DNA of 56,901 bases from assembly GCA_016927855.1 (NCBI GenBank), contig JAFGLV010000163.1, positions 1-56,901 on the forward strand, given 5' to 3'. Made by a program: the position numbers and the translations under genes. Positions 22,213 to 56,745 of the stretch are shown in pieces. Each line of letters begins with the position of its first letter. The first letter of the stretch is position 1. The notes below the pieces were generated by a model. The model was not told where the DNA came from. It searched no databases and worked only from the letters and a program-made list of their open reading frames with translations. The stretch is from Sedimentisphaerales bacterium (GTDB lineage: Bacteria > Planctomycetota > Phycisphaerae > Sedimentisphaerales > Anaerobacaceae).

Positions 22213-22245
22213 CTACGAGCCGGAAGCCTGGAAAGGAGTACCACC

Positions 22246-23031: not shown

Positions 23032-23078
23032 CGAACGCCCCACGGCGTCACGACGAACCAGGTCTAAGGAGAACAACC

Positions 23079-31898: not shown

Positions 31899-32579
31899 AT
31901 GGGACGCATCGAGCGATTGAAAGCGGTGACCATGGCGCGGATCGAAGCCTTTCTGGCGTCGCTGGAAGAGCCTGAGACCGTCATTGGTCAACTGGTTCGC
32001 GAGATGGCAGACAAGGTGACGGAGGCGGCTCGCGCGGAGGCCAAGGCTCTCAGCGCCGTCAAAGCGGATCGTCGCCGGCTCGATGCCGCCAGCGGCCGGG
32101 TCGAACGCCTCGGCAAAGGTGCGACGCTCGCGGTCAAAGCCGACGAGCTCGACACAGCGCGCCAGGCCATCGCCGCCCAGATCGAGGCGGAGCGCGAGGT
32201 CGAGAAGTGCCGTGCGAGGCTGGAAACGTCCGAGTCGGCGTATCATTCAGCCGGAGGGGTACGCGCACAACTTCGGCGACAGCTCGACGAGCTCAGACTC
32301 CGCAAGGACGACATCCTTGCGCGCGTACGGGCTGTCCGACAGCGGGCGGAGACGCAAAATGTTGCGTCTCTACACGAGGGGGCTGGCGGTATTCTGGAGG
32401 CCATTGCCCGAATGGAGATGAAGGTTGACGAAGAGGAAGCCCAGATCGAAATACAGGACCAGATCAGGCAGACACTGGGCGCGACCTTCCAACACGAGCG
32501 GGCGGTCGAACTGGAAAACGACGCGGAAGTCAACCGCCGACTGGATGAGCTAAAGACGCGCGTCCGCCGGGACGAATGA
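31899..32579 (+). CDS. PspA/IM30 family protein, paralog 3
   Basis: MGRIERLKAVTMARIEAFLASLEEPETVIGQLVREMADKVTEAARAEAKAL… parallels paralog 1, with a coiled-coil body. Starts 46 nt after the giant ATPase stop. Confidence 0.85.
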   Translation: MGRIERLKAVTMARIEAFLASLEEPETVIGQLVREMADKVTEAARAEAKALSAVKADRRRLDAASGRVERLGKGATLAVKADELDTARQAIAAQIEAEREVEKCRARLETSESAYHSAGGVRAQLRRQLDELRLRKDDILARVRAVRQRAETQNVASLHEGAGGILEAIARMEMKVDEEEAQIEIQDQIRQTLGATFQHERAVELENDAEVNRRLDELKTRVRRDE

Positions 32580-33992
32580 AGCCGCGCTCTCGCTGTCAGC
32601 GGTGGGCCGCAAATTCAAACATGCCTGCAACCGCGCGCGGAAGAACGGACTGAGGAATCCCAGAAGCATATAGGGCGCACTCAGCGCATAAAGACAGAGA
32701 CCGATGATCGCCCCTGCTACAATGGCCTGCAAGATCACCCCTGGAATCTCCGAGGCGCTTGGCCCAGAAGGAAGCACAGACAGAAGCACGGCGAACGCGA
32801 CCAGCATGGCAGCCACACCAGCGACGATCATCCACACAGCCAGCCACAGCATGAAGGGACCGGGCCGATAGAGTGTTCGACACAAGCGGGAGGCAGCGGC
32901 CGGTGCGAGAATCAGCACTCCACCTATAGTGCCGAGAAAGACCATGAAGACGGTTGTTTCTTCCGAAGACGCCGTGCCGTATGAAATGACGCTCAGACCG
33001 GCAACCGCCAGGAATAGGACAAACGCAGCAGCCATGCGCACGACGCCGCGCCGTCCGAGCGCGGGAACCACCAGCCACAGCAACGTCACCCCGACGACCA
33101 GTGACTGAAGAAGCGCGTCGAACTGTATCGCGGATGACGAAGACATGTCCAGCATCGCCCTGAGCAAGAGATAGGCCAAGTTTACGACAGCCAGAGGGAT
33201 GAGAAGCAGCAGTACGCGGCGATTTCGATTGGCCTTGAGCCCCACTGCCGCCACAATCAAGACCAGCCAGACGAGCAGTCCGGACGCCGTGTCGTACCAG
33301 CGCCATTCGAAGAGCGACGCCTGGCCTTGGTGGGGTCCCAAGTCGCCGATATTCGCCGAGGGGACAATCCGGAACTGCCCGAATGCGGTTAGCGGTACTC
33401 GCCACGAGTACGAACAGGTGCTAGCGCCTCAGCCATACTCGAAGTCGTCGTTCGCGATGGCCCTGTCCCCTCGGTACACGGTAAAAGTGGCCCGATTGTC
33501 TGCCCGTCTCGGTGCGGCATACTCCTCGCCGCCGATTCCCCGCAACTGGTAGTTCAGAACCAGTACACGTCCCTGGCGCTTGATCTGGATTGTCTGTTGT
33601 AGCGGGCCGCCTGCTTTCAGCACGGCCGTCTTGTCTGGGGCTACCTCAAGATGGCGCAATTTTGTCAGGCCTTGGGCTTGGCACGTGTAGTCGTCCCTCA
33701 GGGTCAACTGCTTGACGCGGTACGTGCCAACCGGCAGTTCGATGGTCCCGCGGAGGTTGCTCCATTCCTCGGTATGGCCGTCGTCGCGTTCCAGCAGGAG
33801 CCGCGCGATGTGCGTTCCCTCGATCTTCAACTTGCCCTTCGGCTGGTCCGCGTCCTGCGCCCGGGCGGCGGAAACGGCCCCGCCCAAGGCCATCAGGCCA
33901 GCCGCCAACAGCCGACAGACGACTTTTTTTGAAATCCGGCCAGATTTCATGTCCCCTTTTCCGCTAGTGCGCACTGTAAGTAGAGACGCCAC
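32550..33992 (-). CDS. Candidate selenoprotein, paralog A: signal peptide + ~150-aa beta domain ending …DFEYG, in-frame TGA (33429-33431), …GASTCSYSWRVP…, then fused in frame to a ~260-aa polytopic (about 8 TM) membrane domain
   Basis: ORFs 33429..33992(-) and 32550..33341(-) share one frame across the TGA (…DFEYG*GASTCSYSWRVPLTAFGQFRIVPSANIGDLGPHQGQASLFEWRW…). A SECIS-like hairpin lies 17 nt downstream of the TGA. selA and selB are on the same strand nearby. Confidence 0.5.
33394..33412 (-). promoter_or_regulatory. SECIS-like hairpin for paralog A (mRNA GUACUCG-UGG-CGAGUAC)
   Basis: Seven-bp stem, 3-nt loop, beginning 17 nt 3' of the in-frame UGA. Confidence 0.45.
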
Positions 33993-34043
33993 GAGGGGTC
34001 CATGTTAGCCGAAAGCACGCTCGGATGCCAGAACCCTGCGGTG

Positions 34044-35545
34044 TCAATGGCGATAGATCGTGAGCGTCCGCGTTCCCGTCACCGTGCCGTAGAGTCTGCC
34101 GGTCTCGTAAGTGGCGGTGATCGTGAAGGTCTCCTCGTTGCCGTTCAGTTCCAGGTCTTGTGGTACTCGCCACGAGTACCCGCAGGTGCCGCCTCAGCCG
34201 AAGGGCATCGGGCCCTCCGCGACAGTCTTGCCGGACGCGTTTGTGATCTTGATCGTCGGCGCGACGGACTCGAACATATCCATTTCGCGACCGCTGGGCA
34301 GGTTCGCCGAGCCTGTCTTCTTCGTGGTATCCTCCAAAGCGGAGATCATCATACCATTAGCGAGGTCACAGAGCATCGCTTCGACCTTTAGCGTCTGGCC
34401 TGTCTTGACACGCTGGCCGCCGGTCGGACTCTTGAAGACTACTTCAGGTTTGGCCGAGAAATCGAGCACGAAGGGCGTGTCCTCTCGGATCGTGATGAAG
34501 AAGCTGATCGGGGTGGCGTCTGGCTTGCCTAGCTGCGCGGTGTCCACCCCCAAGCCGATGCGCCGTTGATCGTAGCGTACCGCCATCCGAAACGGTCGGT
34601 AGTCACCGACCGGCAGGCTTAGTTTGCCATCCTTATGCGGGCATTCGTCGACATCGATCAAGGCGTCCCTGCTGTAGACCCAGCCGAATTCGAGCGTCGG
34701 CGCCGCCATATCCCGGCCGCCCGCGCCGGTTTCGAGCACGCCGAACGGGCCTGCATACGGTGCCACCGTCACTTTGTCTCCCGCCGGTGTCGCCGAGAGG
34801 CGGTAGAACGTACCTTTCACGGACCGCCAGTACCCGGCCAAGGGAAGGGACTCGGTGGTGCCGTTCAGAAAGGTGCCGGTCATCGGCGTGTCGTACCGAC
34901 CTGCAATCGTGTGAGCCTGGCCGAGCACCAACTCCACTTCGCGCGAGCCGAGCATGATCTTGCCCTTGCGCGCGGTAGGCGCCGCGAAGAACATGTAGGT
35001 GGTTTCTCCCATACCCCGCAGGCGAGGCATGACGGTCTGCGTGAACGTGCCCTGGCCGGGGCCGTAGTCCATCTCGATTTGGATGTTCTCGAAGAGGATG
35101 TCTCCCGACCGGTTTTGCATGCCGTCAGAAGTTCCATCGGCTCGACCGAGGAAGGGATCGTTGGTCAAGTCGCCGTCGCGGTTCACGTCGAAGTAGAGAC
35201 GGTCATAGTCTGTACCCGCCGACCTGTCGAGCGCGAAATTGTAGCGCAGTCCCGCCTGTGGGTCGAACAAGCTCATGGCGAACGTAACGGCGCCATAGAT
35301 GGGCTCGTCGGACTTGAACGCCGGGTAGGTGACGCCCTCGATCGGCGTGCGGCCGCATTCGGTCGTCGGCTGGCCGGACATGAGCTGCATTTGACGCGGT
35401 CGGGACAGTCAAAGATGGAAACCTCTTCCATCGCATAGACCTTCCCGGCCGCTGCCGGGCTTTCCGCGGCCCCGATCGGCACCGCCTGCGAAAGGCCGAG
35501 CAGCGCCACGCTCAGCAGAGCGAAGGCCATTGCGTTGTCCTTCAT
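34044..35545 (-). pseudogene. Candidate selenoprotein paralog B: …PMPFG, TGA (34194-34196), then GGTCGYSWRVPQDLELNGNEETFTITATYETGRLYGTVTGTRTLTIYRH. A 1-nt frameshift near 35390-35410 separates the signal-peptide exon (35400-35545) from the body, so it is a pseudogene or a sequencing error
   Basis: N-terminal MKDNAMAFALLSVALLGLSQA…VSIFDCPDRV is in a different frame from …MQLMSGQPTTECGRTPIEGVTYPAFKSDEPIYG…. Alignment to paralogs C, D and E restores continuity with a single-base indel in an AAA run. Confidence 0.45.
34162..34180 (-). promoter_or_regulatory. SECIS-like hairpin, paralog B (GGUACUCG-UGG-CGAGUACC)
   Basis: Eight-bp stem starting 13 nt 3' of the UGA. Confidence 0.45.
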
Positions 35546-35566
35546 GTTCGACCTCCTTCAGCAACA

Positions 35567-35649
35567 TCGTAGGGGCAACCCCCCGTGGTTGCCCCTTCGA
35601 CAAGCTCAGGGCAAGCTCAGGGCGGGCACAGGGGCCCGCCCCTACAGGG
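35567..35649. repeat. Intergenic GC-rich palindromic element (GTAGGGGCAACC-CCCCGTG-GTTGCCCC … CAAGCTCAGGGC x2 … GGGCGGGC-ACAGGGG-CCCGCCC-CTACAGGG)
   Basis: Same hairpin modules as the element at 22923-23031 with the loops exchanged, plus a 12-nt tandem duplication. Confidence 0.55.
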
Positions 35650-35671
35650 CACACTGAAAACGCACACAATG

Positions 35672-37249
35672 CTATTGTCCTGACGCACCTCGGTATATGG
35701 TAATCTCGCGCTGGCCGATGACGGTTCCGTACAGGGCCTTGGTGTCATAGGTAGCCGTGATGGTGAAGGTCTCTTCGTTGCCGCCGAGCTGCAGGTCTTG
35801 CGGTACTCGCCACGAGTACCCACAGGTGCTGTCTCAGCCGAACGGCATGACGCCGTCAGCGACGACCTGACCGTTGGCGCGAGCAATCGTGACTTTCGGA
35901 TTCAATTGGTCTCGCTCGCGGATCGCGCGAAACATGATGTCCAGCGCCGGGTCGATCAGCACCGCTTTGACGTCCAACTGCTCGCCTGCCCGAACGCGAC
36001 AGTCCTTGGCGGGTGAGGCAAACAGGACCTGCGGCTTGCCTGAAAAGTCCAGCACGAAAGGCGCGTCCTCGCGGATCTTGATGGCATAAACCGCCGGGCC
36101 GGCCTGCGCGCGGCCGCCGGGCTGGCCATCGGCGTGGTTGTTACGTAGAGTCAGGCAGTTCAGCTTGTCGTAGGTTACGTTGAGCATCTGGATCGCGTAG
36201 TCTCCTACCGGCACGCGAAAGGAGTTGGAGCGATTCGCGGTCTGGCTTCCCAACCCTTCGGTCAGGCTGACCGCGATGTCTTCCGAGGCCAGCGAACCCG
36301 TTGCCTGCACGCGCTCGACGCTGCGCTGTCCTGCCTTGACCTCCAGCGTGCCGAAAGCTCCCTGGTAAGGCCATACGAAGAGCTTGTCGCCGCTCGGTGT
36401 CGCTCCAAGGCGATAGTAGGTGTCACCCTTGCGATGCATAGCCATGAGTTGCTCGCCGCCGTACCATGAGACCGTCGGCCGGCCGCTCGGATCACCTGGC
36501 GCAAGCAGAAAAAGACCGGTGGCGGGATGATCGAACCGGCCGGGGATTCCGCGCGTGTGGCACAGCACGGCCGTGAAGCGTTCGCCGCCGATTTCTATTT
36601 CGCCCATCCACGCCTTCGTCGTGGTGAGTATGGCAAAGCTCCGGCTGCCTGGATAGCGGAGGAAACGCGGCATGACTTCCAGTTGGTGCTGAGGATCGTC
36701 ACCCGGTGCTACCCGCAGTTTCAAGGGCTCGAAACACCTTTCAGATACTCCTGAATTCGATGCACCGGGATTCATCAGGGCTTTGTTTGGAACGTCCTTC
36801 GTCGGCGACAGACAGGTGTCGTCGGTCAGATCGCCGTTGCGGTTCGTGTCAAGGTAGAGACGGTCGTAGCCCTGGCCGGTGCCTTCGGATTCGTCGAAGG
36901 CAAACGCATAGTGGTACGGTGTATCGGGCTCTGTAGTCGCGCCGCCAACCTGGAGCGAGCCATACAGCGGCTTGTCCGATTTGAACGAAGGGTAGGCCTC
37001 AACGTTTTTGTCCGCTTCCGTCTGGCATTCACAGTAGGCGCCGACGAGCAGCCGGCTGCGCAGAACCTCAGGCGCATCGAAGGTGGAGATCTCCTTGAGC
37101 TCGAACGCGGCCGCGTCTGCTGGTGGAGACGAGGACTCCGCTCCCATCGTCGCGGCGGCGAAGCTCCCGAAAAGCAGCAGAATCACAAGACCTCGTCGGA
37201 CTGCTTTTCCGCTTGCCCGCTGCCTCGTAGTGGCTCTTTCCTGGCACAT
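35672..37249 (-). CDS. Candidate selenoprotein paralog C (secreted, 471 aa + Sec + 53 aa): …GVMPFG, TGA (35834-35836), DSTCGYSWRVPQDLQLGGNEETFTITATYDTKALYGTVIGQREITIYRGASGQ
   Basis: Signal peptide. CxC motif (CECQTE). EF-hand/dockerin-like loop YLDTNRNGDLTDD. The post-UGA frame is conserved at protein level relative to B, D and E, with synonymous nucleotide differences. Confidence 0.55.
35802..35820 (-). promoter_or_regulatory. SECIS-like hairpin, paralog C
   Basis: GGUACUCG-UGG-CGAGUACC, 13 nt 3' of the UGA. Confidence 0.45.
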
Positions 37250-37280
37250 AATCGTTCCTTTCTCGTATTGAGGTCCGTGT

Positions 37281-38855
37281 TCAATTCCGAGTGACAGTGA
37301 ACGTGCGTTTGCCGACGACCGTCCCGTAAAGCTCCCGGGTATCGTAGGTTACGGTAATGGTGGAGGTTTCTTCGTCGCCGTCGAGGGGCAGATCGTTCGG
37401 TACTCGCCACGAGTACCCGCAGGTGCCGTCTCAGCCGAAGGGCAGGACGCCTTCAGCCACCGTCGTGCCGTCGGCGCGCGCGATTACGACGCTGGGGTCG
37501 AGCGAGGTCGACTCTCCTGATTCGGACTGATGGTGCAGTTCGCGAATCATGAAGTCCAGGACTGGGTCGATCAGAACAGCCTTGACCATCAGCTCCTCAC
37601 CTCGCTTGATCCGGCACTCCTTGCCCGGCAGCGCGAACATCACTTCCGGTGGGTTGGAGAAATCGAAGACGAACGGCTTGTCCGTCCGAATTCTGATTCC
37701 ATAGACGGGCGGTCTATTTACCGCGGCGCGAGGTTGACCGTCGGCATGGTAGTTGTTTGAAAGGCCGATGCGCAGGCTTCCATAGTCGAGACGGACGAAG
37801 CTGGGATGGTAATCGCCCACCGGCAGACGAGAGGTTCGAACGGCATACTGGAGGCCGCTACTCAATACGTCCCCTATCGGGACAGCGGTGTCCTCCGACT
37901 GCAACGATCCCTCGATCGCCATCGTTTCGAGACTACGTCCGCCTGCGCCCACCTCCAACGTCCCGAGCGGGCCATCGTAGGAGCGGACGGTCAGCTTGTC
38001 ACCGGCCGGCGTCGCTGCAAAGCGATAGAAGGTGTCCCCGATCTTATGCGTGGCCATCAGACGGTCGCCACCCCACCAACTGGCGCCTGAGCCGCGCTCC
38101 GGCATCAGGTGCAGCGCAGTCCAGGGCTGGTCGAACCAGCCGGTGACGCCGTAGTTGTGTCCCAGCAGGACGGTGAACTTCTTGCCGGCGATGGTGACTT
38201 GACCGCGTCTGGCTCTGGTGGTGACGAACGCCACGTGGCCGCATCCACCTGCCGCCAGATATAGGCGCGGCATGACCTCCAGCGGGTGGGCGCCTTCCGA
38301 TCCGAACGGCAGCGGGACATCGGCATACTCGAAACAGACTTGCTGTCGGGCCGGCAACCCATCGAGCGTGGCTCCGTCGGGAGGGTCCTTCAAGCGTTTG
38401 CACGCAGGGTCGTTGGTCAGATCAAGGTCTCGATTCGAATCGAAGTACAGCCGATCGTATCCCTGTCCCGTACCGCCGGACTCATCGAGCGCGAAGCAGA
38501 AGCGCAAGCCTGAATCCGCCTGGTAGGCGCTCCCGGCGAAGGAGGCGGAGCCATAGATGGGCTTGTCCGACTTGAAGCTAGGGTAAGTCGTCACGTTAGG
38601 GTCCGCTGTCTCGCTGCAAGGACAACGCTGGCCGATTCCGAAAGAGGATAGTCCCTGGGCCAGATCGAAAGCCGAGACCTCTTTGAGGTTAGAAGCTGTC
38701 GCGCGGATCCAGAACATCAGGATCGCTGCGACCAGGAACAGGACGAGCGCGCCCACTACGGACAACCCCAGTAGTCGCTTTGGATGTTTCATGCCTGAGT
38801 CCCTCGTGATCCGGGCGGCTGTCTCTTGTTCACTCTTATAAAGGTGTCCGAACAC
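37281..38855 (-). CDS. Candidate selenoprotein paralog D (474 aa + Sec + 49 aa): …GVLPFG, TGA (37431-37433), DGTCGYSWRVPNDLPLDGDEETSTITVTYDTRELYGTVVGKRTFTVTRN
   Basis: N-terminal TM/signal anchor. CPCSETAD motif. YFDSNRDLDLTNDP loop. Same C-terminal module as the other paralogs. Confidence 0.55.
37399..37417 (-). promoter_or_regulatory. SECIS-like hairpin, paralog D
   Basis: GGUACUCG-UGG-CGAGUACC, 13 nt 3' of the UGA. Confidence 0.45.
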
Positions 38856-38867
38856 TGTGTCCTCACG

Positions 38868-40424
38868 CTAGCGACCGAGAGACCGCGTCGCTTTGTCGGG
38901 CGACGCCTCGGGTCGACAGATCACGACCTGACGCTCGGCAGTCACTGCACCATACAACTGACGGGTGTCATAGGTCACGGTGATGGTGAAGGTCTCTTCG
39001 TTGCCGTCGAGTGGCAGATCGTCCGGTACCCGCCACGAGTACCCGCAGGTGCCGTCTCAGCCGAAGGGCAAGGCGCCTTCGGCCACCGCCGTGCCGTTGG
39101 CGCGGGCAATCGTGACCTTGGGAGCGAGCGAGACGGAAGGCCCTCCTTCGCGCCGATAAGAGAGGCCGCGAATCATGAAGTCCAGGACCGGGTCGATCAG
39201 GACGGCTTTGATCGTGAGTTGCTCGCCGCGCCGGACGCGCTGGCCTTTGGCGGGCTGGGCGAACATCACCTCCGGCGTGTTGAAGAAATCGAAGACGAAA
39301 GGCTTGTCCGCGCGAATCTCGATCCCATAGACAGGTGGTCGGGTCGTCCCGCCGCGTGGCCGGCCATCGGCGTGGTAGTTGTTCGAAAGCGTGATGCGCA
39401 GATCCCCGTATTCGAGATCGAGCAGCCTGGGAGCATAGTCGCCCACCGGCAGGCGCCACAGGCGGGTGGGTTCCTGAGTCCCGTTGTTCAGGACGTTGCC
39501 TACCGGGACGGCGGTATCCTCCGATTGCAGCGATCCTCTCATTGCCATCGTTCGGACATTGCGGTCGGCCGGACCGACTTCCAGCGTCCCCAGCGGCCCA
39601 TCGTGGGGACGGACCGTCAGCTTGTCTCCGGCCGGCGTCGCTGCGAAGCGATAGAAAGTGTGACCGATCTTGTGTATCGCCATCAGCCGGTCGCCACTCC
39701 ACCAGGTGTAGCCTCGGTCGCGGTTGCTGGGACCGATCAGGTGCAGTGCCGTCTGGGGGTGGTCGAACCAGCCGGCGATGAGGTTGTTGTGTCCCAGCAG
39801 GACATCGAACGTCTGGCCGGCCACCGTGATCTTTCCGAACCTGCCTTTGGTGGTGACGAACGCAACATAGCGGCGGTCGCCTTCGTATACGATCAGTCTC
39901 GGCATGACCTCCAACGGACGTGTGCCTTCCGACCCGAACGTCAGCGGGATGCCGATGCACTCGAAACAAGCCTGCTGCTGGATCGACGCGCCGCTCAGGA
40001 GCATCTGTCCCGGCGGGTCTGGTACCCGTGCCAGCACACCGTCGTCAGTCAGATCGAGGTTCCGGTTCGCATCGAAGTAGAGCCGGTCGTAACCCTTGTC
40101 TGTGCCGCCGGACTCATCCACTGCGAAACAGAAGCGCGTACCTGAGTCTGCCTTGTGAGGATCGCTGCCGAAGCGGACGGAGCCATAGAGCGGCTTCTGT
40201 GACGCGAATACTGGGTAAGCTGTTACCTCAGCATCCGCGGCCTCGCTGCACAAACACCGCAGGCCGGTACGGAAGGCGGATTTCAATTTGGCCAGATCGA
40301 CGGCCGATGCTTCCTCAAGGTCGAAGACCAACGCCTCACTGCCATGCACCGACACCGCCGCAAGCAGGATCAATGCGAACCCGCTTGTCACGATTCTCTC
40401 CGAAACGCGCCTTGGCCGGTTCAT
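38868..40424 (-). CDS. Candidate selenoprotein paralog E (455 aa + Sec + 62 aa): …GALPFG, TGA (39057-39059), DGTCGYSWRVPDDLPLDGNEETFTITVTYDTRQLYGAVTAERQVVICRPEASPDKATRSLGR
   Basis: Signal peptide MNRPRRVSERIVTSGFALILLAAVSVHG. CLCSEAAD motif. YFDANRNLDLTDD loop. Confidence 0.55.
39025..39043 (-). promoter_or_regulatory. SECIS-like hairpin, paralog E (GGUACUCG-UGG-CGGGUACC; an A-to-G change gives a U-G wobble that preserves the stem)
   Basis: Read directly from the sequence. Confidence 0.45.
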
Positions 40425-40664
40425 GCGAGTTTCCCTCCATTTTCATATCTCCACGGATTCTCGCGATGCCATACCGGCACGAAATATAACACATCGGCGT
40501 GCGAAAATCAAAACAATACCCAAGAAAGTGCGGAATTTCATGGTAGCCGACGCCGGTGGGCTTGTCTCACGCGAGAGTTTTATCGGCAAAAGACTGTATC
40601 GGTAGCGCAATGAATCACACTTTCATGCGTCCAAATAAGAGGAACCTTTTTGGGAGGTAATGCT

Positions 40665-40829
40665 ATGGCTGCTCGAAGTGTGAAACGAAAGGTCACTGTC
40701 TGGGGCATTCTCGTCGTCCTGTTCGCCGGGCTGATGCTGTCGGGCTGCGGCAAGAACAACGAGCCGGCGCCCCAGCCCGACAACGAGCCCAATGCGGCGA
40801 TGTCCACGCCGGCTGACGCGAACAACTGA
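40665..40829 (+). CDS. Small (54-aa) putative lipoprotein, MAARSVKRKVTVWGILVVLFAGLMLSGCGKNNEPAPQPDNEPNAAMSTPADANN
   Basis: Strong SD GGGAGG 8 nt upstream of the ATG, lipobox LSGC, in an AT-richer intergenic region. Below the 60-aa cutoff of the ORF track. Confidence 0.35.
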   Translation: MAARSVKRKVTVWGILVVLFAGLMLSGCGKNNEPAPQPDNEPNAAMSTPADANN

Positions 40830-40871
40830 TCCGCCGCGCCAACGGCGCCGAGCGCGAGGACGTTGGCGCTT

Positions 40872-41141
40872 TCAGCGGCAGAGCATCGCGACGCCGACCG
40901 TCGAGAGATAAAGAGCGATCAAACCGCCCGCGATCAGCGTGCAGATCACCGCCAGGGTCCGGGGCCGATCGTAGCGGATGCCGATCGCGCCGAAGAGCAT
41001 CGCCAGCGGAAAACACAGGACTATCAGCAGCCCTCCAAGGGCTGCGGTCGGATCGCCTCAGCCAGGCTGGAGCACCATCATCAAGCCGATGGTCGCTCCG
41101 GCCGTGACGAGAAATGTCGCTGCTATCTTGCCGTACCGCAT
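40872..41141 (-). CDS. Candidate small (89-aa) integral-membrane selenoprotein directly downstream of selB: MRYGKIAATFLVTAGATIGLMMVLQPG, TGA (41058-41060), GDPTAALGGLLIVLCFPLAMLFGAIGIRYDRPRTLAVICTLIAGGLIALYLSTVGVAMLCR
   Basis: ATG lies 16 nt after the selB stop, preceded by AAAGGA. In-frame UGA is followed after 12 nt by the hairpin GCAGCCC-UUGGA-GGGCUGC. Hydrophobic TM-like segments lie on both sides of the UGA. Confidence 0.45.
41027..41045 (-). promoter_or_regulatory. SECIS-like hairpin for the small membrane protein (7-bp stem, UUGGA apical loop)
   Basis: Read directly. Spacing and the G/U-containing apical loop fit bacterial SECIS criteria. Confidence 0.45.
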
Positions 41142-41157
41142 GGCGTGTGTCCTTTGT

Positions 41158-43083
41158 CTATTCGTCGGCGTTGACCTTGTTCAAGTGCCGCGTGTATCCC
41201 ACGCGGCGCGTCACGCCGATCTTGTCGAAGTAGTCGAGCAACGGGATGGCATATTTGCGCGTCGTATCGAGCAGGTATTTGAACTTGACGCTCTCCAGGT
41301 TGCCGTGCTCGCGGATGTAAGCGATCAGGCGCGCGCGGGCGTCCGCCAGCGCCTCGGCGTGAACGTACATGTCCTGCTCGATCCGCACGATTCTCTGCTG
41401 TTCGACCAGGATACGCAGGGCCTTGCGAATCTCCGGCTCGCTCGCCCCGGTACCGGCCATCAGCTCCGCGGAGCCAGGCGGACTGAACGGCTGTTGCTTG
41501 AAGAGCGCTTCGATCTTCGTGAGCAGTTCCCACTCGGCCTGCTTGAATTGCTCGCGATGTTGAGGCAGCGCCAGGTGATTTTTTCTCTCGGCCAGCAGGC
41601 CGTTCGACAGCAGGCGCTCCAGCACAGGGTCGAACACGCTCCTGTGAATTCCGGAGGCGGTCAGAAGCTGCTCGGGCCGGATACCGGGACTTTCAGGCTG
41701 ACGACGGTGCGTCTCGGCGACCAATTCCAGCAGTCGCTGCTCGATGCGCCGGACCGTGTCAGTGTGTGCGTACAACCTGGCGCCGAGCCGGATGGCGGAG
41801 TCCTCGTCCTGTAACCCCGCTAGAGTCTTGGTCACCTCCGGCTCGGGTATCTTGGTGCGCAGCGAGATTTGTCTTTCATCGACCGCCAGCGACTCGGCGG
41901 TCCTGACGCAATACGCGATGAAGTCTCGCGGCGTCTTGACCGCCTCGGCCCGCGCGCGGATATCGTCGAGTATCTCCGGGCGGCTGCGCTTCAGTCGCCT
42001 GGGAATCGCCTCGACGATCAGGCCGCCGCCGATGGTGCGGGCAGGGGAGGGCAGTCGCAAGATGAAATGGTCTCCCGGCCCGGCCACGACCGGCTGGTTC
42101 AGACACACCTGGATCAGGCACGTCTCGCCGGGCTTGAGCGGCGCGTCCTCGAAGAGATACGCGCTGGCGGGTGTCTCGGAAGTCCCGGTGTGGAACTTGA
42201 CCTGGGCGCCGTTCTTGAGACTGCTCTTCTCTTGCGCCAGCAGCTTCAGCTCGCACACGTACCATGATTCAGGCGAAAAATAGTCTCCAATGGTGACGAC
42301 GTTGCCTCGCTTGATGTCTTTGGGGTCCCACTGGGGGACGTTCAGCGCCGCGCATTGACCGACCATGGCGCCGTCGCTTTCGTGATTGTAGACCTGCACC
42401 GCGCGGAGCCGGCCTTTCCTGCCCTGGGGCAGGAGCACGAGCTCATCGCCGATCTTGATCGATCCGGACACCGGAATGCCGGCGACGATGGTCCCGTAGC
42501 CCTTAGCGGAGAAGGCGCGCTCCAGCGGGACACGGAAGACGCCGTCGGCGCGTTTGGGCTCGATCGCTTCGACCAATGCCTTGAGCGCGTCGTAGAACTC
42601 GCCAAAGCCGTCGCCTGTGATGCTGGAGACCGGCAGGACCGGTGCGCCTTCGAGGAAGGTCCCGAGCAGGAAGGCCGCGATCTCCTGCGTCACCGCTTCG
42701 ACGCGCTCGGGACGGACGCAATCGACTTTCGTCAGCGCCACGATACCATGTTCGACGCCCAGCAGGGTGAGGATGTCCAGGTGCTCGCGCGTCTGCGGCA
42801 TGACGCCGTCGTCGGCCGCGATGACGAGGATCGCGCCGTCGATGCCGGTCGCACCGGCCACCATCGTCTTGACGAAGTTCTCGTGGCCCGGCACGTCCAC
42901 CACGCCGATTTCCGTCCCCGAGATCAGGCACGGCGCAAAGCCCAGCTCGATGGACATGCCGCGTTCCTTCTCCTCTTTGAGCCGGTCCGTCTCGCAGCCG
43001 GTCAGGAGGCGGATCAGCGCGGTCTTGCCGTGGTCGATGTGACCGGCCGTGCCGAGCGTGATGTTTCGCTGCTGCGCACCCAC
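41158..43083 (-). CDS. selB: Selenocysteine-specific translation elongation factor SelB
   Basis: GTP-binding N-terminus …ITLGTAGHIDHGKTALIRLLTGCETDRLKEEKERGMSIELGFAPC…VVDVPGHENFVKTMVAGATGIDGAILVIAADDGVMPQTREHL…. C-terminal winged-helix extension (641 aa total, longer than EF-Tu) as expected for SECIS binding. Confidence 0.9.
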   Translation of the reverse strand: MGAQQRNITLGTAGHIDHGKTALIRLLTGCETDRLKEEKERGMSIELGFAPCLISGTEIGVVDVPGHENFVKTMVAGATGIDGAILVIAADDGVMPQTREHLDILTLLGVEHGIVALTKVDCVRPERVEAVTQEIAAFLLGTFLEGAPVLPVSSITGDGFGEFYDALKALVEAIEPKRADGVFRVPLERAFSAKGYGTIVAGIPVSGSIKIGDELVLLPQGRKGRLRAVQVYNHESDGAMVGQCAALNVPQWDPKDIKRGNVVTIGDYFSPESWYVCELKLLAQEKSSLKNGAQVKFHTGTSETPASAYLFEDAPLKPGETCLIQVCLNQPVVAGPGDHFILRLPSPARTIGGGLIVEAIPRRLKRSRPEILDDIRARAEAVKTPRDFIAYCVRTAESLAVDERQISLRTKIPEPEVTKTLAGLQDEDSAIRLGARLYAHTDTVRRIEQRLLELVAETHRRQPESPGIRPEQLLTASGIHRSVFDPVLERLLSNGLLAERKNHLALPQHREQFKQAEWELLTKIEALFKQQPFSPPGSAELMAGTGASEPEIRKALRILVEQQRIVRIEQDMYVHAEALADARARLIAYIREHGNLESVKFKYLLDTTRKYAIPLLDYFDKIGVTRRVGYTRHLNKVNADE

Positions 43084-43088
43084 CGGCT

Positions 43089-44513
43089 CTACTGACCTCC
43101 ACCCAGAATCCTGCCGAGCGCTGCGATGACGACCGGGTCGTCCCCGTCGCGCAGCGTGCGCGTATCGATCAGCACGCGATCGTCCTGAATCCGCGCGAAG
43201 ATCGGCGGCTCGTTCAGCCGCAGCCGTTTCGCCAGTGCCTCGGCGTCGCCTCCTTTGGCTTCGACAGTCACCAGCGTCGTCGCCAGATTTTGCGTCGGCA
43301 ACGACCCACTGCCCATCTGCGAAAAGCCGGGCGTCGTCGTCACCGGCGCATCAGGAACCTTCTCGCGAACCTGCGCGACAAGGCGCTCGGCGTGCTGCTT
43401 GATGTCCTCGGCGGTGCGCCGCAGCATTTGCAGCGTCGGCACCTCACGCAAGGCAACGGTCTCGTCGAGGAACAGTTTCAGTGTCGCCTCCAACGCCGCG
43501 AGGGTGAGCTTGCCCACGCGGACGATCCTGGCAAACTGGTTCTTGCGGATCGCGTCGATCCATCGTTTCCGGCCCAGGATGATGCCGCCTTGCGAGGCGC
43601 CGATGAGCTTGTCGGCGCTCGAGGTCACGATGTCGGCGCCGCGGCAGATCGATTCAGGCAGCGTCGGCTCCGGCGCGAAACCGAACTGCGAAAAGTCGAT
43701 CAGCGCACCCGCACCCACGTCGTCGATCAGAGGCAGGTCGTGTTCGTGAGCGATCTTGACCATCACGTCCAGCGGGACCTCGGACGAGAAGCCTTGAATC
43801 TTGTAGTTGCTCGGATGGACGCGGAGGATCGCGGCGGTATTCTCGGTGATCGCGTTTTCGTAGTCCCGCGCGTGCGTTTTGTTGGTCGTGCCGACCTCGA
43901 CCAGCTTGGCGCCGCTGAAGGCCATCACGTCGGGCAAGCGGAACGATCCGCCGATTTCGACGAGCTGACCGCGCGAGACGATCACCTCTTTGCCCGCCGC
44001 AACGGTGTTGAGCACGATAGCCGTCGCGGCCGCGTTGTTGTTGACCACTGTCGCCGCCTCGGCGCCGGTCAATCGCTGAAGCAGCGCTTCGATGCACTCG
44101 TCCCGCCAGGAGCGTTTGCCGGTCTCTCGATCCGCCTGGAGCAGGGAGTAGCCGCCTAGTGTTTCCTGAATCTGTTCCAGCGCCTTGCCCGCGAGGACCG
44201 CCCGGCCCAGCGCCGTGTGCAGGACGATCCCTGTCCCGTTGACGACCCTGCCGTAGAAAGGCCTCTCGAGGCTCTCCAGGCGGCTGGTCGCGGCCGAGAC
44301 GACCCATTGCTGAATCTGACCTTCGCTCGGGTCGTCGGCCGCTCCGGCCAGCAGGCGCTGCCTAACCTCTTCGACAGACGCTCGTACTGCCTCGGCCACC
44401 GGCGACCGGCCCAATTGTCCCTCAAGGGCCTGCAACGCTGGGTTCTTCAGAATCACGTCGACCGACGGCAACCGGCGCAACAACTGGTTCGTCTGCTTTT
44501 CCATAACCAGCAT
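43089..44513 (-). CDS. selA: L-seryl-tRNA(Sec) selenium transferase SelA
   Basis: N-terminal …LLRRLPSVDVILKNPALQAL… and core …VVNGTGIVLHTALGRAVL…NNNAAATAIVLNT… with a PLP-fold body. Typical SelA length (474 aa), 5 nt upstream of selB. Confidence 0.9.
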   Translation of the reverse strand: MLVMEKQTNQLLRRLPSVDVILKNPALQALEGQLGRSPVAEAVRASVEEVRQRLLAGAADDPSEGQIQQWVVSAATSRLESLERPFYGRVVNGTGIVLHTALGRAVLAGKALEQIQETLGGYSLLQADRETGKRSWRDECIEALLQRLTGAEAATVVNNNAAATAIVLNTVAAGKEVIVSRGQLVEIGGSFRLPDVMAFSGAKLVEVGTTNKTHARDYENAITENTAAILRVHPSNYKIQGFSSEVPLDVMVKIAHEHDLPLIDDVGAGALIDFSQFGFAPEPTLPESICRGADIVTSSADKLIGASQGGIILGRKRWIDAIRKNQFARIVRVGKLTLAALEATLKLFLDETVALREVPTLQMLRRTAEDIKQHAERLVAQVREKVPDAPVTTTPGFSQMGSGSLPTQNLATTLVTVEAKGGDAEALAKRLRLNEPPIFARIQDDRVLIDTRTLRDGDDPVVIAALGRILGGGQ

Positions 44514-44567
44514 TTTACCGCTTCGGCGTACAAAATCCCACGCAAAACCTTGCCTTGTTCGTCGTGG

Positions 44568-44653
44568 GTGGGTAGGGGCGAATAACCATTCGCCCTTGTC
44601 CGGACGCCGGCAGGGTGTCTCGAACCGTCCGAGGGCGAATGATTATTCGCCCC
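44568..44653. repeat. Divergent selA / paralog-F intergenic region with two near-identical perfect hairpins (GGGCGAAT-AACC-ATTCGCCC and GGGCGAAT-GATT-ATTCGCCC), a partial third copy, and flanking GTAGGGG / GGACGCC…GGCGTCC inverted repeats
   Basis: Read directly. Related in style to the GTAGGGGC-hairpin repeat family. Not foldable as tRNA-Sec. Confidence 0.5.
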
Positions 44654-44775
44654 CACAGGCGTCCCCATGGGCGAATGCAGATCGAAAACCATGTAACGTC
44701 CCGACCGCCGAGGCGTCTAACGTTGACAGAGGCCCCTGCCGGCGATAGAATCTCGGCTCAAAGGCGGATCAGATC

Positions 44776-45420
44776 ATGAAAAGACGGGATATCCTGATTT
44801 CTCTCGCAATCATCGCGGCCGCGCTGGTCGCCTGCTATCTCGTGTTCCAACAGGAAGGCAATGTGGAGATCGTGACCCCTGGCGTTTTGCTGACCCTGAA
44901 TCGGCCCTTCTTTGGCGAGATGACCCTGACGTCGGCCCAGGGGCCCGTTCGCGTGCCGGCCCGCGCCTATTTCCCGCGCTCGCTCGGGTTGACGGCGCAC
45001 GCCAACGGCAGTACATGGTCCCTGAGCAGCACCGGCCCCTGGGGCGATCTTGCCAGGGTCAAAGTCAAGCCGGGCCGCACCACGTCTCTGGCCGTCGGGC
45101 CTCCCCTACGGATCGTGCCGAAGGTCGATATCGGTCCCTACCAGGCCTACATTGACCTGCAGATCTTCGGTGGCGCAGGCGAGAGATACCGCAACGTGAT
45201 TGTCAAAGATGGGCGCAGCCTGCCTGCTCCGGAATTGAAGATCGTCAATGAGGAAGGAAGCGTGCTCGTCACAGACAAGTTCCAGTATGGCTGAGGTGGC
45301 ACCTGCCGGTACTCGTGGCGAGTGCCAGAAGGGTTCAAAGGCAAGTTCCAGGTGCAGATCGATCTCGACCTGGGGCCCCTCGAAGTGACCCATGAAAGGA
45401 GTTGGCACTCCATCGAGTAG
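44776..45420 (+). CDS. Candidate selenoprotein paralog F (small form): N-terminal TM anchor + ~150-aa beta domain …VTDKFQYG, TGA (45292-45294), GGTCRYSWRVPEGFKGKFQVQIDLDLGPLEVTHERSWHSIE
   Basis: Same [FY]G-UGA-xxTCxYSWRVP junction, and the hairpin GGUACUCG-UGG-CGAGUGCC at 45308-45326 as in the - strand paralogs. The N-domain resembles paralog A. Confidence 0.5.
45308..45326 (+). promoter_or_regulatory. SECIS-like hairpin, paralog F
   Basis: Stem has one U-G wobble. Lies 13 nt 3' of the UGA. Confidence 0.45.
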
Positions 45421-45520
45421 TAGCGGATATCGCGCGCGTGTACCGGCGGGTTCAGAGACGTCTCTGGACCCGCCTTTTTTGTTGGTAGGGGAGAATGACG
45501 GTAAGGGGAAAGGGCAGGAA

Positions 45521-46369: not shown

Positions 46370-46425
46370 CCAAGCGCCTCCTGTTCAAGATGACTGGCAA
46401 CCCGGGGGGCAAGAGGATTTTTGCC

Positions 46426-48415: not shown

Positions 48416-48419
48416 CCCG

Positions 48420-50592: not shown

Positions 50593-50613
50593 AGACGCAA
50601 TATCTTGCGTCTC
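50592..50613 (+). promoter_or_regulatory. Perfect hairpin GAGACGCAA-TATC-TTGCGTCTC overlapping the methyltransferase stop, 20 nt before the dehydratase-operon start; no U-tract
   Basis: Read directly from the sequence. Confidence 0.35.
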
Positions 50614-50632
50614 CTACCCCAAGGAGAAGACA

Positions 50633-54356: not shown

Positions 54357-55153
54357 TTTGCGCCGGAATCGACGCAGGTTCACGAACGATCAAGATGGTG
54401 TTGCTGGACAGCGACAGCGGCAAGGTTCTGGGCCGGGGTCTGTCCGACCAGGGTGTCGAGCAGTCGTCGCTGGCCCAGTCTCTCTTCGAGAGCATACTGA
54501 ACGAGACTGGCATCGTTCGCGACGAAGTGCGACGCGTGGTCGCTACCGGGTACGGGCGCAACGCGGTGGAGTTTGCCGATACCACGATCACCGAGATCAC
54601 GTGTCACGCGCGGGGTGTGCGGCACCTGGCGCCCGCGACGGCCACCATCGTCGATATCGGCGGCGAGGACAGCAAACTCATCCGCCTGGATGGTAACGGC
54701 AAGGTCCGCGATTTCGCGATGAACGACCGCTGCGCCGCCGGGACCGGACGCTTCCTGGAAGTCGTCGCGGAGCGCCTCGCGACGAGTCTCGACGACCTGG
54801 GCGCGATGGCCGCACGGAGCCGGACGCCCGCCGCGATCAGCAGCATGTGCGTGGTCTTCGCTGAGACCGAAATCATCGGTCTGCTGGCGGCGCACACGCC
54901 GCGCGAAGATATCGCCGCCGGCGTGCAGGCTGCAATCGCCGCGCGCGTAGCCGGCATGGCCGGACGCAAGGTGACGGTGCCCATCGTCTTCACCGGCGGC
55001 GTCGCGCTCGTATCCGGCATGAAGGGTGCCCTGGAATCCGTCCTCGAACAACCGGTCGAGATCGCGCCCGATCCGCAAATGACCGGAGCGCTGGGAGCGG
55101 CGTTGTTGGCCGCCAACAGTCTCGATCACAGCCCATTCTTAGGAGTCGATTGA
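54353..55153 (+). CDS. CoA-substrate-specific enzyme activase (HgdC/BcrA/BcrD ATPase family), the ATP-dependent electron-delivering activator of 2-hydroxyacyl-CoA dehydratase/BCR-type enzymes
   Basis: MICAGIDAGSRTIKMVLLD… (ASKHA phosphate-1), …ITEITCHARG…TIVDIGGEDSKLIRLDGNGKVRDFAMNDRCAAGTGRFLE… (cluster-ligating Cys and adenosine motifs). Confidence 0.85.
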   Translation: MICAGIDAGSRTIKMVLLDSDSGKVLGRGLSDQGVEQSSLAQSLFESILNETGIVRDEVRRVVATGYGRNAVEFADTTITEITCHARGVRHLAPATATIVDIGGEDSKLIRLDGNGKVRDFAMNDRCAAGTGRFLEVVAERLATSLDDLGAMAARSRTPAAISSMCVVFAETEIIGLLAAHTPREDIAAGVQAAIAARVAGMAGRKVTVPIVFTGGVALVSGMKGALESVLEQPVEIAPDPQMTGALGAALLAANSLDHSPFLGVD

Positions 55154-56745
55154 TGATAGACATGGAAAGACGTAAACGCGTAATGCAACGGTCGATCCGC
55201 CTGGGGCATTGCATCTGCAATCCGAAGCAGCCGTGTCCGTGCGAGTACTTCAAGGAGAAGAACATCTGTACCTGCGCGGGCGAGCGGGCCGAGAGCCCCA
55301 CCGGCAAGGTCGAGCTGACTAGGCTGGTCGAGAAGGCCGGTTGCGCCTCCAAGATCGACCAAGCATTTCTCAAGGAGGTTCTCAGGGACCTTCCCGAGGT
55401 CGAGGACCCGCGCGTGCTCGTGGGCGTGCCAGCCGGTGACGACGCCGGCATCTACGACCTCGGCAACGGTCAGGCGCTCGTGCAGACCGTGGACGTGTTC
55501 ACGCCATCGGTGGACGATCCATACATGTTTGGGCAGGTCGCCGCGGCCAATTCCGTCAGTGATATCTACGCGATGGGCGGGACGCCGATGACGGCGCTTT
55601 CAGTGATCGGCTTTCCCGCGCGGAAGATTCCCGACTACGCGATGAACGACATCCTGCGCGGCGGCATCGACAAGATGAAGGAGGCCGGCGTCGCGATCAT
55701 CGGAGGCCACAGCATCAACGACGACCAGATCAAGGCAGGCTTCGCGGTGACCGGGATGATCGATCCGGCCCGAATCGTCAGCAACGCGGGCGCGAAGCCC
55801 GGCGACTGCCTCATTCTCACCAAGCCGCTCGGGACCGGCATCGTGGCCTTCGCGTCCCAGATCGGCAAGGCGTCAGACGAGAGCGTCCGCGCGGCCGGTG
55901 AATCTATGGCGACACTGAACAAGGCGGCGTCCGAGCTGATGGTCGAGTTCGGCGCGCATGCAGCCACCGACGTGACGGGTTTCAGTCTGATGGGCCACCT
56001 CGCGGAAATGGCGCGTTGCAGTGGCGTGGACGTGGAAGTCATCTGGGACGACATTCCGCTGTTCGAGGGCGTGCTGGAGTACGCGGCCGGCGGCATCCTG
56101 CCCGGCGCGCTGGAGCGTAACAAAGAGTCGTGCGGCCGAGTCGTCACGGCCGACGAATCGCTGCCCCAGGAGATGGTCGACATCTGCTTCGACGCGCAGA
56201 CCTCCGGCGGCCTGCTCATCGCCATCGCCGCGTCAGATTGTGAGGAATTCCTCAAGGCCCTCCACGATGCAGGCGTAGAACATGCGGCCGTTGTCGGGAA
56301 AGTGCTGGAAAAAGGGACGGGTCGGATCTTTCTTCGCGCGACGGGTCGGCGGAGAATTCCAACGATCGACAAGGGTAAGCCCTCTGCGGCCGCTGTACCT
56401 GTGAAGCCTCAGGCCGCGACGGAAGAGGTCGCCTGCTGCGCCGATGCCGTGACATCAACATCGTCGGGCGACGGTAACGGATCGCCGATGGACGAGGTCA
56501 AGGCCAGGTTCAACGCCTTCCTCAGCGCCGCCTCCTCGCCTCATGGGCTCGATGCCTATACGAAACAGGCGATGGCTATCGCGCTGTCGGTCGCCACCCG
56601 CTGCGAGCCTTGCTTGAAGATGCACCTGGCCAACGCGCGCAAAAAGGGTTTCACCCAGGCCGAGATCGACGAAGCCGCCTGGATGGGCATCAGCTTCGCC
56701 GGCTCGCCCGCCATGGTCTTCTACGAGCAGACCAAAGGCCAGTGA
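55153..56745 (+). CDS. selD: Selenophosphate synthetase (selenide, water dikinase) as a three-domain fusion: Cys-rich N-terminal extension (HCICNPKQPCPCEYFKEKNICTCAG), SelD catalytic core (Cys form, …KAGCASKID…), and C-terminal AhpD-like/carboxymuconolactone-decarboxylase-like domain with CxxC (…VATRCEPCLKMHLANARKKGF…)
   Basis: PurM-fold SelD motifs (…VGVPAGDDAGIYDLGNGQALVQTVDVFTP…; …AIIGGHSINDDQIKAGFAVTGM…; …ATDVTGFSLMGHL…). The start overlaps the activase stop (TGATG) with SD AGGAG, so it is the last gene of the dehydratase operon. Confidence 0.85.
   Translation: MIDMERRKRVMQRSIRLGHCICNPKQPCPCEYFKEKNICTCAGERAESPTGKVELTRLVEKAGCASKIDQAFLKEVLRDLPEVEDPRVLVGVPAGDDAGIYDLGNGQALVQTVDVFTPSVDDPYMFGQVAAANSVSDIYAMGGTPMTALSVIGFPARKIPDYAMNDILRGGIDKMKEAGVAIIGGHSINDDQIKAGFAVTGMIDPARIVSNAGAKPGDCLILTKPLGTGIVAFASQIGKASDESVRAAGESMATLNKAASELMVEFGAHAATDVTGFSLMGHLAEMARCSGVDVEVIWDDIPLFEGVLEYAAGGILPGALERNKESCGRVVTADESLPQEMVDICFDAQTSGGLLIAIAASDCEEFLKALHDAGVEHAAVVGKVLEKGTGRIFLRATGRRRIPTIDKGKPSAAAVPVKPQAATEEVACCADAVTSTSSGDGNGSPMDEVKARFNAFLSAASSPHGLDAYTKQAMAIALSVATRCEPCLKMHLANARKKGFTQAEIDEAAWMGISFAGSPAMVFYEQTKGQ

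Follow-up and report, generated by a model that had tools for sequence, protein, structure and literature searches.

A probable family of membrane-anchored selenoproteins encoded beside selA-selB in a Sedimentisphaerales bacterium and in relatives across the PVC superphylum

Contig JAFGLV010000163.1 comes from a metagenome-assembled genome (MAG) of a Sedimentisphaerales bacterium (Planctomycetota); the whole stretch analysed here, referred to as the window, is 56.9 kb long. It carries six paralogous genes, A to F, next to the selenocysteine (Sec) genes selA and selB. Open reading frame (ORF) listing, in-frame translation and comparison with relatives indicate that these are very probably six real selenoprotein genes of one previously uncatalogued family, in which an internal UGA is decoded as Sec. 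The decoding is canonical and the protein family is probably new. Its unusual traits are obligate Sec, an exported immunoglobulin (Ig)-like scaffold, multiple architectures and residence in the sel operon across the Planctomycetes-Verrucomicrobia-Chlamydiae (PVC) superphylum.

All six annotated ORFs close at [F/Y]G-TGA, as a preliminary description of this DNA had reported, and in each the frame stays open past the TGA, for 41-62 codons in B-F and for 292 in A, where 290 had been given (Table 1). The extension begins with xxTCxYSWRVP in B-F and continues in B-E with DLxLxGxEETxTITxTY[DE]TxxLYGxV. That of paralog A starts G-A-S-T-C-S-YSWRVP and is one residue longer (GASTCSYSWRVP). Where U-x2-3-TC had been proposed, the spacing is U-x3-C, and U-x4-C in A. 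In GenBank the paralogues appear as truncated 'hypothetical proteins', and paralog C is present only as the truncated P0001, 'hypothetical protein JW993_19460'.

Table 1. Coordinates of the family genes, their predicted Sec codons and selenocysteine insertion sequence (SECIS) hairpins, and the sel genes in the window
Feature	Position	Strand	Remarks
Paralog A, whole (A-type)	32550..33992	-	annotated ORF 33429-33992; 292 open codons after TGA; likely ATG start at 33950
Paralog B, whole (big type)	34044..35545	-	annotated ORF 34194-35390; 49 open codons after TGA; body + extension 34044-35390; signal/transmembrane part 35273-35545, other frame
Paralog C, whole (big type, 471 aa + U + 53 aa)	35672..37249	-	annotated ORF 35834-37249; 53 open codons after TGA
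Paralog D, whole (big type, 474 aa + U + 49 aa)	37281..38855	-	annotated ORF 37431-38855; 49 open codons after TGA
Paralog E, whole (big type, 455 aa + U + 62 aa)	38868..40424	-	annotated ORF 39057-40424; 62 open codons after TGA
Paralog F, whole (F-type, 172 aa + U + 41 aa)	44776..45420	+	annotated ORF 44776-45294; 41 open codons after TGA
UGA (predicted Sec codon) of A	33429..33431	-	
UGA (predicted Sec codon) of B	34194..34196	-	
UGA (predicted Sec codon) of C	35834..35836	-	
UGA (predicted Sec codon) of D	37431..37433	-	
UGA (predicted Sec codon) of E	39057..39059	-	
UGA (predicted Sec codon) of F	45292..45294	+	
Predicted SECIS hairpin of A	33394..33411	-	7-bp stem, UGG loop; one codon farther from UGA than in B-F
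Predicted SECIS hairpin of B	34162..34180	-	GGUACUCG-UGG-CGAGUACC
Predicted SECIS hairpin of C	35802..35820	-	
Predicted SECIS hairpin of D	37399..37417	-	
Predicted SECIS hairpin of E	39025..39043	-	U-G wobble variant
Predicted SECIS hairpin of F	45308..45326	+	U-G wobble variant
selB, Sec-specific elongation factor	41158..43083	-	TIGR00475 362 bits (cutoff 242), SelB winged-helix Pfam domains; directly upstream of E
selA, selenocysteine synthase	43089..44513	-	TIGR00474 541.6 bits
selD, selenophosphate synthetase	55150..56745	+	TIGR00476 363 bits + TIGR00778; C-terminal AhpD/CMD fusion

A search with the paralog C protein gave 148 relatives, and among the 120 listed, 108 end ...FG and are thus truncated at the same site. 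When one genome per GTDB species was scanned, 146 matching stretches were confirmed as relatives and 76 loci (numbered with the prefix L) were returned, which belong to Phycisphaerae, Pirellulales, Thermoguttaceae, Planctomycetaceae, Verrucomicrobiota (Limisphaerales) and Lentisphaerae. Six-frame translation of these loci and of the window gave 121 family C-termini. Every one of the 116 in-frame stops at the site was TGA, never TAA or TAG, while the true stops of the big-type genes were mixed (TGA 37, TAA 29, TAG 23). The big-type extension was exactly 49 codons long in 70 of 89. The downstream motif GYSWRVP...EETFTI.V.YDT.ELYG was conserved and third positions varied. The ratio of nonsynonymous to synonymous differences per site (pN/pS) was 0.48 over the extension and 0.60 over the preceding 34 codons, a comparison that we treat as supporting because synonymous sites are near saturation (pS about 0.67). 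Protein-level conservation of the extension and this ratio agree with the purifying selection on translation past the UGA that had been proposed.

A sense codon occupied the UGA site in 5 genomic copies and a dozen database proteins, and in these the same sequence continues in frame. The codons were CGA/CGG (Arg), TCA (Ser), CAA (Gln) and TGG (Trp), with Gly and Leu seen at protein level only. Orthologues that simply terminate at the site, which the preliminary description had named as evidence that would count against it, were not the pattern observed: the downstream frame is conserved and the sense-codon homologues are continuous. In one locus (L083) the Ser (TCA) variant shares an operon with a UGA paralogue downstream of selA-selB and keeps its hairpin intact; it is therefore a recent loss of Sec in one paralogue.

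The 18-nt core of the hairpin, GTACTCGTGGCGRGTRCC, occurs in exactly 6 copies in the window, every one just 3' of these TGAs (chance expectation 0.03; 0 of 100 shuffles gave six), and the stem starts 13 nt from the UGA in B-F and 16 nt in A. Single-sequence folding included the hairpin in the minimum free energy (MFE) structure of 5 of the 6 window copies. No Rfam family was found at the hairpins, the whole-window Rfam scan returning a tRNA-Asp only, and no T run lies 3' of the hairpin. The bacterial SECIS (bSECIS) consensus used for comparison was the Zhang and Gladyshev model as summarised in PMC13188914: an apical loop of 3-9 nt with G in the first two loop positions, an upper stem of 4-16 bp, a UGA-loop gap of 16-37 nt and an MFE <= -7.5 kcal/mol. 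The family hairpin agrees with this model, having a UGG loop (or GUGGC, 5 nt), a stem of 7-8 bp, a UGA-to-loop spacing of 20-21 nt (23-24 nt in A, within the range) and a local MFE <= -7.5 kcal/mol in 108 of 112 hairpins. The near-identical hairpin after each UGA, its fit to a bacterial SECIS element and the two copies with stem-preserving U-G wobbles (E and F) therefore all stood as first described.

Covariation between species was assessed in 112 sequences, with positions numbered from the T of the TGA as 0. Pairs 17-33 to 22-28 were all formed in 104 sequences, pair 16-34 in 89 and pair 23-27 in 96. Altogether 94.7% of pair cells were paired, compared with 21-60% when the partners were slid. 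Seven double-sided compensations were present in the stem, a result matched in 0 of 500 shuffles. A change from Val(GTA) to Ile(ATA) was accompanied by Tyr TAC to TAT in 4 of 4 cases; Ser(TCG) to Ala(GCG) was paired with Arg CGA to CGC twice in L023 and independently in L083; and Ser to Thr(ACA) was paired with Arg CGT. What makes these compensations informative is that each couples an amino-acid replacement on one side of the stem with a silent change on the other; like the wobble changes, they keep the stem.

Codon choice followed the same pattern. Val was encoded by GTA or GTG in 112 of 112 sequences, against a background of 42% in the same genes (GTA alone, 69% against 9%). Arg was CGA in 95 of 112 (background 16%), Gly was GGG in 81 of the 85 sequences with Gly at the hairpin site (background 16%), and Ser was TCG or TCA in 109 of 109. 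These counts indicate that synonymous hairpin sites are forced to pairing-competent, otherwise rare codons, an effect that is near-total, although binomial P values for the codons overstate its significance since the sequences are phylogenetically related. A non-Sec subfamily that keeps [YF]xWx[VI]P formed just 2-4 of 7 pairs and had no hairpin (-1.5 to -3.0 kcal/mol). The hairpin is thus not a by-product of the peptide, because non-Sec relatives with the same peptide pattern have none.

The spacer between UGA and stem also showed constraint. Within GAC GGC ACC TGC, 3-14 nt past the UGA (e.g. 35822-35833), third positions were almost fixed, with C in 82-105 of 112 sequences. This fixation exceeds the protein requirement and might reflect an extended SECIS, a spacer constraint or an alternative pairing. 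GGCAC (6-10) is able to pair with GUGCC (30-34) if position 32 is G.

The role of the extension in the folded protein was examined in an AlphaFold2 model, for which the input was the natural Ser variant P0049 with 102 aligned relatives, not the window proteins. The model (pLDDT 92.7, pTM 0.86) has an N-terminal helix at 6-31 followed by beta structure only. The U-site is a four-residue turn (480-484) between two strands, and the partner Cys opens the next strand. Three strands of the last beta-sandwich (485-490, 501-511 and 518-528) are built from the sequence encoded past the UGA. A product ending at FG is predicted to miss a third of that domain; the model thereby shows the extension as structurally indispensable and termination at the UGA as leaving an unfoldable fragment. 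An extracytoplasmic location is inferred from the N-terminal helix, which was modelled as a transmembrane helix where signal peptides had been proposed.

The family has three or four architectures. Big-type proteins (B-E) comprise about 470 aa + U + 49 aa, about 520 aa in all. The A-type joins a transmembrane segment, one Sec beta-sandwich and a membrane domain of about 290 aa with seven transmembrane helices in one frame; related loci contain a further 19 copies in which this fusion is conserved, with an extension of 271-309 codons. Modelled separately, the membrane domain gave 7 transmembrane helices (pLDDT 76.5) with weak fold matches. The F-type consists of an N-terminal transmembrane segment and a single Sec beta-sandwich, and orthologues of paralog F were found in L041 and L077. 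A 'long F' type of about 400 aa occurs at other loci. Structural similarities were all generic and low-scoring, with S-layer (surface-layer) proteins among the matches (7ptp, 8qox, 9g93, 8cka). The CxC motif described earlier as conserved is present in C, D and E and absent from the others, and one of those Cys residues is conserved family-wide. In paralog B, a frameshift near 35400 places the signal/transmembrane part out of frame with the body (34194-35399). Its orthologue (L077:11692-13041) has no such break, being one ORF with 76% identity from residue 49 onward, and the frameshift in the window is either an assembly error or the mark of a pseudogene.

Profile matches confirmed that selA, selB and selD are all in the window (Table 1). 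The window SelD is the Cys form (AGCASK), with a Cys-rich N-terminal extension (CICNPKQPCPC...CTC) and an AhpD/CMD domain with CEPC. At related loci, selB lay upstream on the same strand in 19 of the 48 that had at least 3 kb of upstream flank, and selA was present at 16. SelD-AhpD fusions stood beside family genes in 9 other loci, mostly of Verrucomicrobiota, and were full-length in 8 of them (L025, L028, L034, L036, L037, L040, L043, L069). A tRNA-Sec was found by ARAGORN within 6 kb in 8 of 60 loci, compared with one other tRNA in total.

Further genes accompanied the family outside the window. A NapH/MauN-like Fer4_5 polyferredoxin membrane protein adjoins it in 13 loci (L018, L021, L025, L027, L028, L032, L034, L036, L038, L040, L043, L057, L066), and a CarboxypepD_reg-repeat protein of about 1100 aa clusters with it in 11. 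The NapH-like gene is often accompanied by tRNA-Sec, the CarboxypepD_reg-repeat protein and a 'long F-type' Sec protein. The clustering with selD, tRNA-Sec and the polyferredoxin suggests an envelope system that is supplied with electrons and is the principal client of the Sec machinery in these bacteria.

Sec and the downstream Cys behaved as a functional pair. Cys was present at U+4 in 113 of 116 Sec forms and at U-1 (MPFC-U) in 2, with none in 1. About half of the sense variants lacked the partner Cys, and more distant relatives lacked the whole loop; the Cys is therefore kept with Sec and often lost with the sense codon. The loop of the C-U variant reads MPFC-U-xxDGVRE-YSWRVP, with the +4 Cys lost, in L055 (about nt 3660) and L063 (about nt 5870). 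The U/C redox pair of the preliminary description is plausible on these counts.

Several observations weigh against Sec decoding in this family or against the function proposed for it. Every sequence derives from MAGs. No tRNA-Sec was found in the 56.9-kb window, and tBLASTn detected no counterparts of the NapH-like, CarboxypepD_reg or 'long F-type' proteins there, the sole match being a weak one of the long-F query to paralog A. Hairpin folding energy was ordinary for composition (z = -0.9 to +0.6), its stability being unexceptional at this G+C content; single-sequence z-scores are uninformative, so the hairpin case rests on the covariation between species. Cys orthologues, the classic confirmation of Sec, were found by none of three search routes: Cys occupied the UGA site in 0 of 121 genomic copies, in none of the 120 word-index protein matches listed, and in none of the 144 matches from an exhaustive HMMER search of 1.84 billion representatives with an extension profile. 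The family thus lacks the classical Sec/Cys pair. Variants at the site among homologues were R, S, Q, G, W, L or a deleted loop. The missing Cys orthologue makes the family atypical without weakening the decoding inference. A loop-less non-Sec subfamily also exists, from which a Sec-independent role of the scaffold follows.

That subfamily is represented at L081:2120-12611 by a tandem array of 7 non-Sec paralogues of 356-526 aa with the loop deleted, no sel genes nearby and no hairpin. The extension profile also matched giant repeat proteins (P0137, P0145, P0146, P0152, P0160) of up to 4147 aa with 9-28 matched stretches. Proteins such as P0137, P0145 and P0146 were rejected as family members, sharing just the Y-x-W-x-V-P...TITV pattern of PKD-like Ig repeats; in P0146, which was inspected, the match runs through the strand pattern Y-x-W-x-V-P...G-x-x-T-I-T-V of such repeats. 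The C-terminal sandwich may have its remote origin in such repeats, or the likeness may be convergent.

Two other accounts of the UGA were weighed. If the TGAs were real stops, the downstream block would be a non-coding terminator, a regulatory hairpin or a mobile repeat, which is how gene callers and the GenBank record treat it by ending the proteins at FG, and the block does hold a stable G+C-rich hairpin. Yet the frame is open for 41-62 codons (about 290 in the A-type) in 116 copies with conserved amino acids and varying third positions, sense-codon homologues read through, the extension supplies three confidently modelled strands of the last domain, and TAA or TAG never replaces TGA. The absence of a T run argues against a terminator. 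That the window has no further copy of the motif speaks against the mobile repeat that the preliminary description had itself raised. We consider genuine termination extremely improbable. The UGA might instead be read without Sec, through near-cognate Trp, Cys or Arg insertion, hairpin-stimulated programmed readthrough or reassignment of UGA in the lineage. The lack of tRNA-Sec in the window and of Cys homologues is compatible with this, as are the sense variants W, R, G and S, which are those expected from near-cognate decoding or single mutations. However, UGA is still a normal stop, ending 37 of 89 of the same genes; the hairpin fits a SelB-dependent bSECIS in position, loop and stem; and the genes lie directly downstream of selA-selB, often with selD and near tRNA-Sec, in many genomes of three phyla, a siting difficult to account for were any residue but Sec inserted. 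Readthrough of this kind is very unlikely. Under Sec decoding, SelB with Sec-tRNA(Sec) would read the internal UGA as Sec, directed by the 7-8-bp hairpin with its UGG apical loop 13 nt downstream. That hairpin would be written into the codons for G-Y-S-W-R-V-P, with selA and selB supplied from the same strand directly upstream.

Our estimates for redox, ligand-binding and cross-linking roles of the proteins are rough and give no firm discrimination among them. The products would be anchored by the N-terminal transmembrane helix and carry a chain of beta-sandwich (macroglobulin/Ig-like) domains, with Sec in a tight turn, G-U-x-G-T-C-G, four residues ahead of a nearly invariant Cys. The exposed selenolate/thiolate pair on this extracytoplasmic domain would be the working site. 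Most likely it works by selenenylsulfide cycling, or else it clamps a soft ligand, for example a metal or chalcogen; as no Cys form was found, sulfur presumably cannot do the job. Redox cycling through the selenenylsulfide, perhaps fed by polyferredoxin-type partners, is a plausible but tentative assignment. It is possible, though we lean against it, that Sec and Cys form a soft metal or metalloid site (Cu(I), Hg, As or selenium) in envelope chaperones or receptors; that the ligand is then handed to the seven-helix A-type partner, an outer-membrane channel or an ABC (ATP-binding cassette) importer is an idea we hold with similar reserve. The rare C-U variant in L055 and L063 suggests such a site, CU motifs marking metal-handling selenoproteins in the table of PMC13188914, and paralog F adjoins a MetA-like outer-membrane barrel and an SsuA-like ABC importer. 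The structural similarities, by contrast, are generic and low-scoring, no conserved His/Met/Asp ligand set was identified near the loop, the polyferredoxin clustering in 13 loci points to electron transfer, and the transporter genes are not linked to the family outside this lineage, except for a MetA-like barrel in L079. Intermolecular Se-S or Se-Se cross-links in an envelope or S-layer-like array of tandem paralogues would make sense of the Ig/macroglobulin-like domain chains, the S-layer proteins among the structural matches, the tandem arrays (1-4 Sec paralogues and 7 non-Sec paralogues) and the loop-less subfamily, in which the scaffold works without Sec. We know of no precedent for structural selenocysteine cross-links in bacteria; moreover, strict retention of a costly residue, never replaced by Cys, argues for chemistry rather than bonding, and the polyferredoxin association is left unexplained, so that cross-linking seems improbable. 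Also unlikely, if a little less so, is a dedicated selenium or chalcogen capture and reduction system with this family as its extracytoplasmic working part. Exposed Sec/Cys loops would bind environmental selenium via Se-Se or Se-S bonds, electrons would come from NapH-like or double-cubane reductases, and the product would travel inward to SelD-AhpD by way of the seven-helix A-type protein, the outer-membrane channel or the ABC importer. If true, this would explain the siting in sel operons near selD and tRNA-Sec, the irreplaceable Sec and the multiplication of paralogues, and would supply the high-affinity prokaryotic selenium uptake system that has not been identified according to a 2026 review.

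The remainder of the window holds further genes around the family. The order 3' of F is a MetA-like barrel, an SsuA-like ABC importer, a methyltransferase, a double-cubane-cluster reductase with paralogues and activase, and selD-AhpD; the window gene arrangement is syntenic in L077. Paralog F overlaps at its end with the MetA-like outer-membrane barrel (PF13557), after which comes the importer (45392-49199, +); such a barrel also lies near family genes in L077 and in the distant L079. The genes between the importer and selD (50540-55153, +) encode a double-cubane-cluster anaerobic reductase (NF040772, 411 bits), another two HGD-D paralogues and an activase of the acyl-CoA-dehydratase type; this block might be a low-potential reductase linked to selenium metabolism. 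On the other side of the array (22195-23750, 26517-31853 and 31899-32579, +), three PspA/IM30 paralogues flank a 1778-aa DUF3686/AAA ATPase and a 660-aa protein for which no family match was found. The PspA-DUF3686 part adjoins the selenoprotein array in L077 too.

Comparison with family databases supports the claim, made in the preliminary description, of a new selenoprotein family. NCBIfam (release 20, June 2026) gave no match at E <= 0.1, and the single match in Pfam (2025) was a sub-threshold MG2 (16.5 bits against a cutoff of 32.8, E = 0.011). None of the 119 prokaryotic selenoprotein families in Table 1 of PMC13188914 (May 2026) has a motif resembling FG-U-x3-C. The families of Haft and Gwadz 2023 and of Haft and Tolstoy 2025 are included there with NCBIfam models, and these models do not match. 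Full-text literature searches returned no prior description, and the family is probably undescribed. Published discovery strategies depend on Sec/Cys pairs (PMC13188914), and a family without Cys homologues could plausibly have been overlooked for that reason. It thus exposes a gap in selenoprotein discovery, since pipelines of this kind pass over Cys-less families.

The family is present in roughly a hundred or more species-level genomes, drawn from Planctomycetota, Verrucomicrobiota and Lentisphaerae, and with all its genes annotated as truncated 'hypothetical proteins' the selenoproteomes of the carriers are underestimated. In Proteobacteria the usual selAB-adjacent gene is formate dehydrogenase. 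Here the new family takes that place and may account for the persistence of the Sec trait in the PVC superphylum. It offers a rare case in which selenium is seemingly chemically irreplaceable, and an unusual setting for Sec: a membrane-anchored, exported, non-thioredoxin Ig-like scaffold, in one form fused to a domain of seven transmembrane helices. The nearly invariant hairpin laid over a conserved beta-strand also offers a clear-cut natural test case of two coding constraints acting on one sequence.

Like canonical bacterial selenoprotein genes such as E. coli fdhF and fdnG, the family genes have an in-frame UGA, a stem-loop at a fixed short distance and a G in the apical loop, and would depend on selA, selB, selD and tRNA-Sec. 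The client gene adjoins selAB, as fdhA often does in Proteobacteria. The family differs from canonical ones in being unrelated to those catalogued and without Cys orthologues, in lacking a thioredoxin-like or cofactor-binding fold, and in its tandem paralogues and several architectures. Its SECIS, unlike canonical elements, is almost invariant across phyla, because it overlaps the conserved beta-strand (GYSWRVP).

With the U/C selenoproteins, both the thioredoxin-fold UxxC/CxxU proteins and the CU proteins HgcA, SaoL and MbdU (PMC13188914), the family shares a Sec and a nearby Cys that are kept or lost together, and the rare C-U variant resembles the CU metal-handling proteins. The U-x3-C of the new family spans a beta-turn, whereas UxxC sits on a helix N-terminus; the scaffold is extracytoplasmic and all-beta, and the NCBIfam and Pfam models of these proteins do not match. 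Membership of the thioredoxin-fold UxxC/CxxU group was rejected, the model being all-beta after the transmembrane helix and the spacing U-x3-C.

The weak Pfam MG2 match recalls the macroglobulin (MG) domains of alpha-2-macroglobulin and complement C3/C5 (4u48, 2p9r, 6rpt), and bacterial alpha-2-macroglobulins are likewise envelope-anchored. Membership of the alpha-2-macroglobulin or thioester proteins was also rejected: the new family has no thioester domain, CGEQ motif or A2M Pfam families, its identity to MG structures is 8-18% with a whole-chain TM-score <= 0.17, and its reactive residue is Sec in a sandwich loop. A further likeness is to the CopC and YcnJ-type copper-binding beta-sandwiches (5icu, 9c14), which are also small periplasmic Ig-like sandwiches. 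In YcnJ and CopCD the sandwich is sometimes fused to a membrane domain, much as the A-type Sec domain is joined to its seven transmembrane helices.

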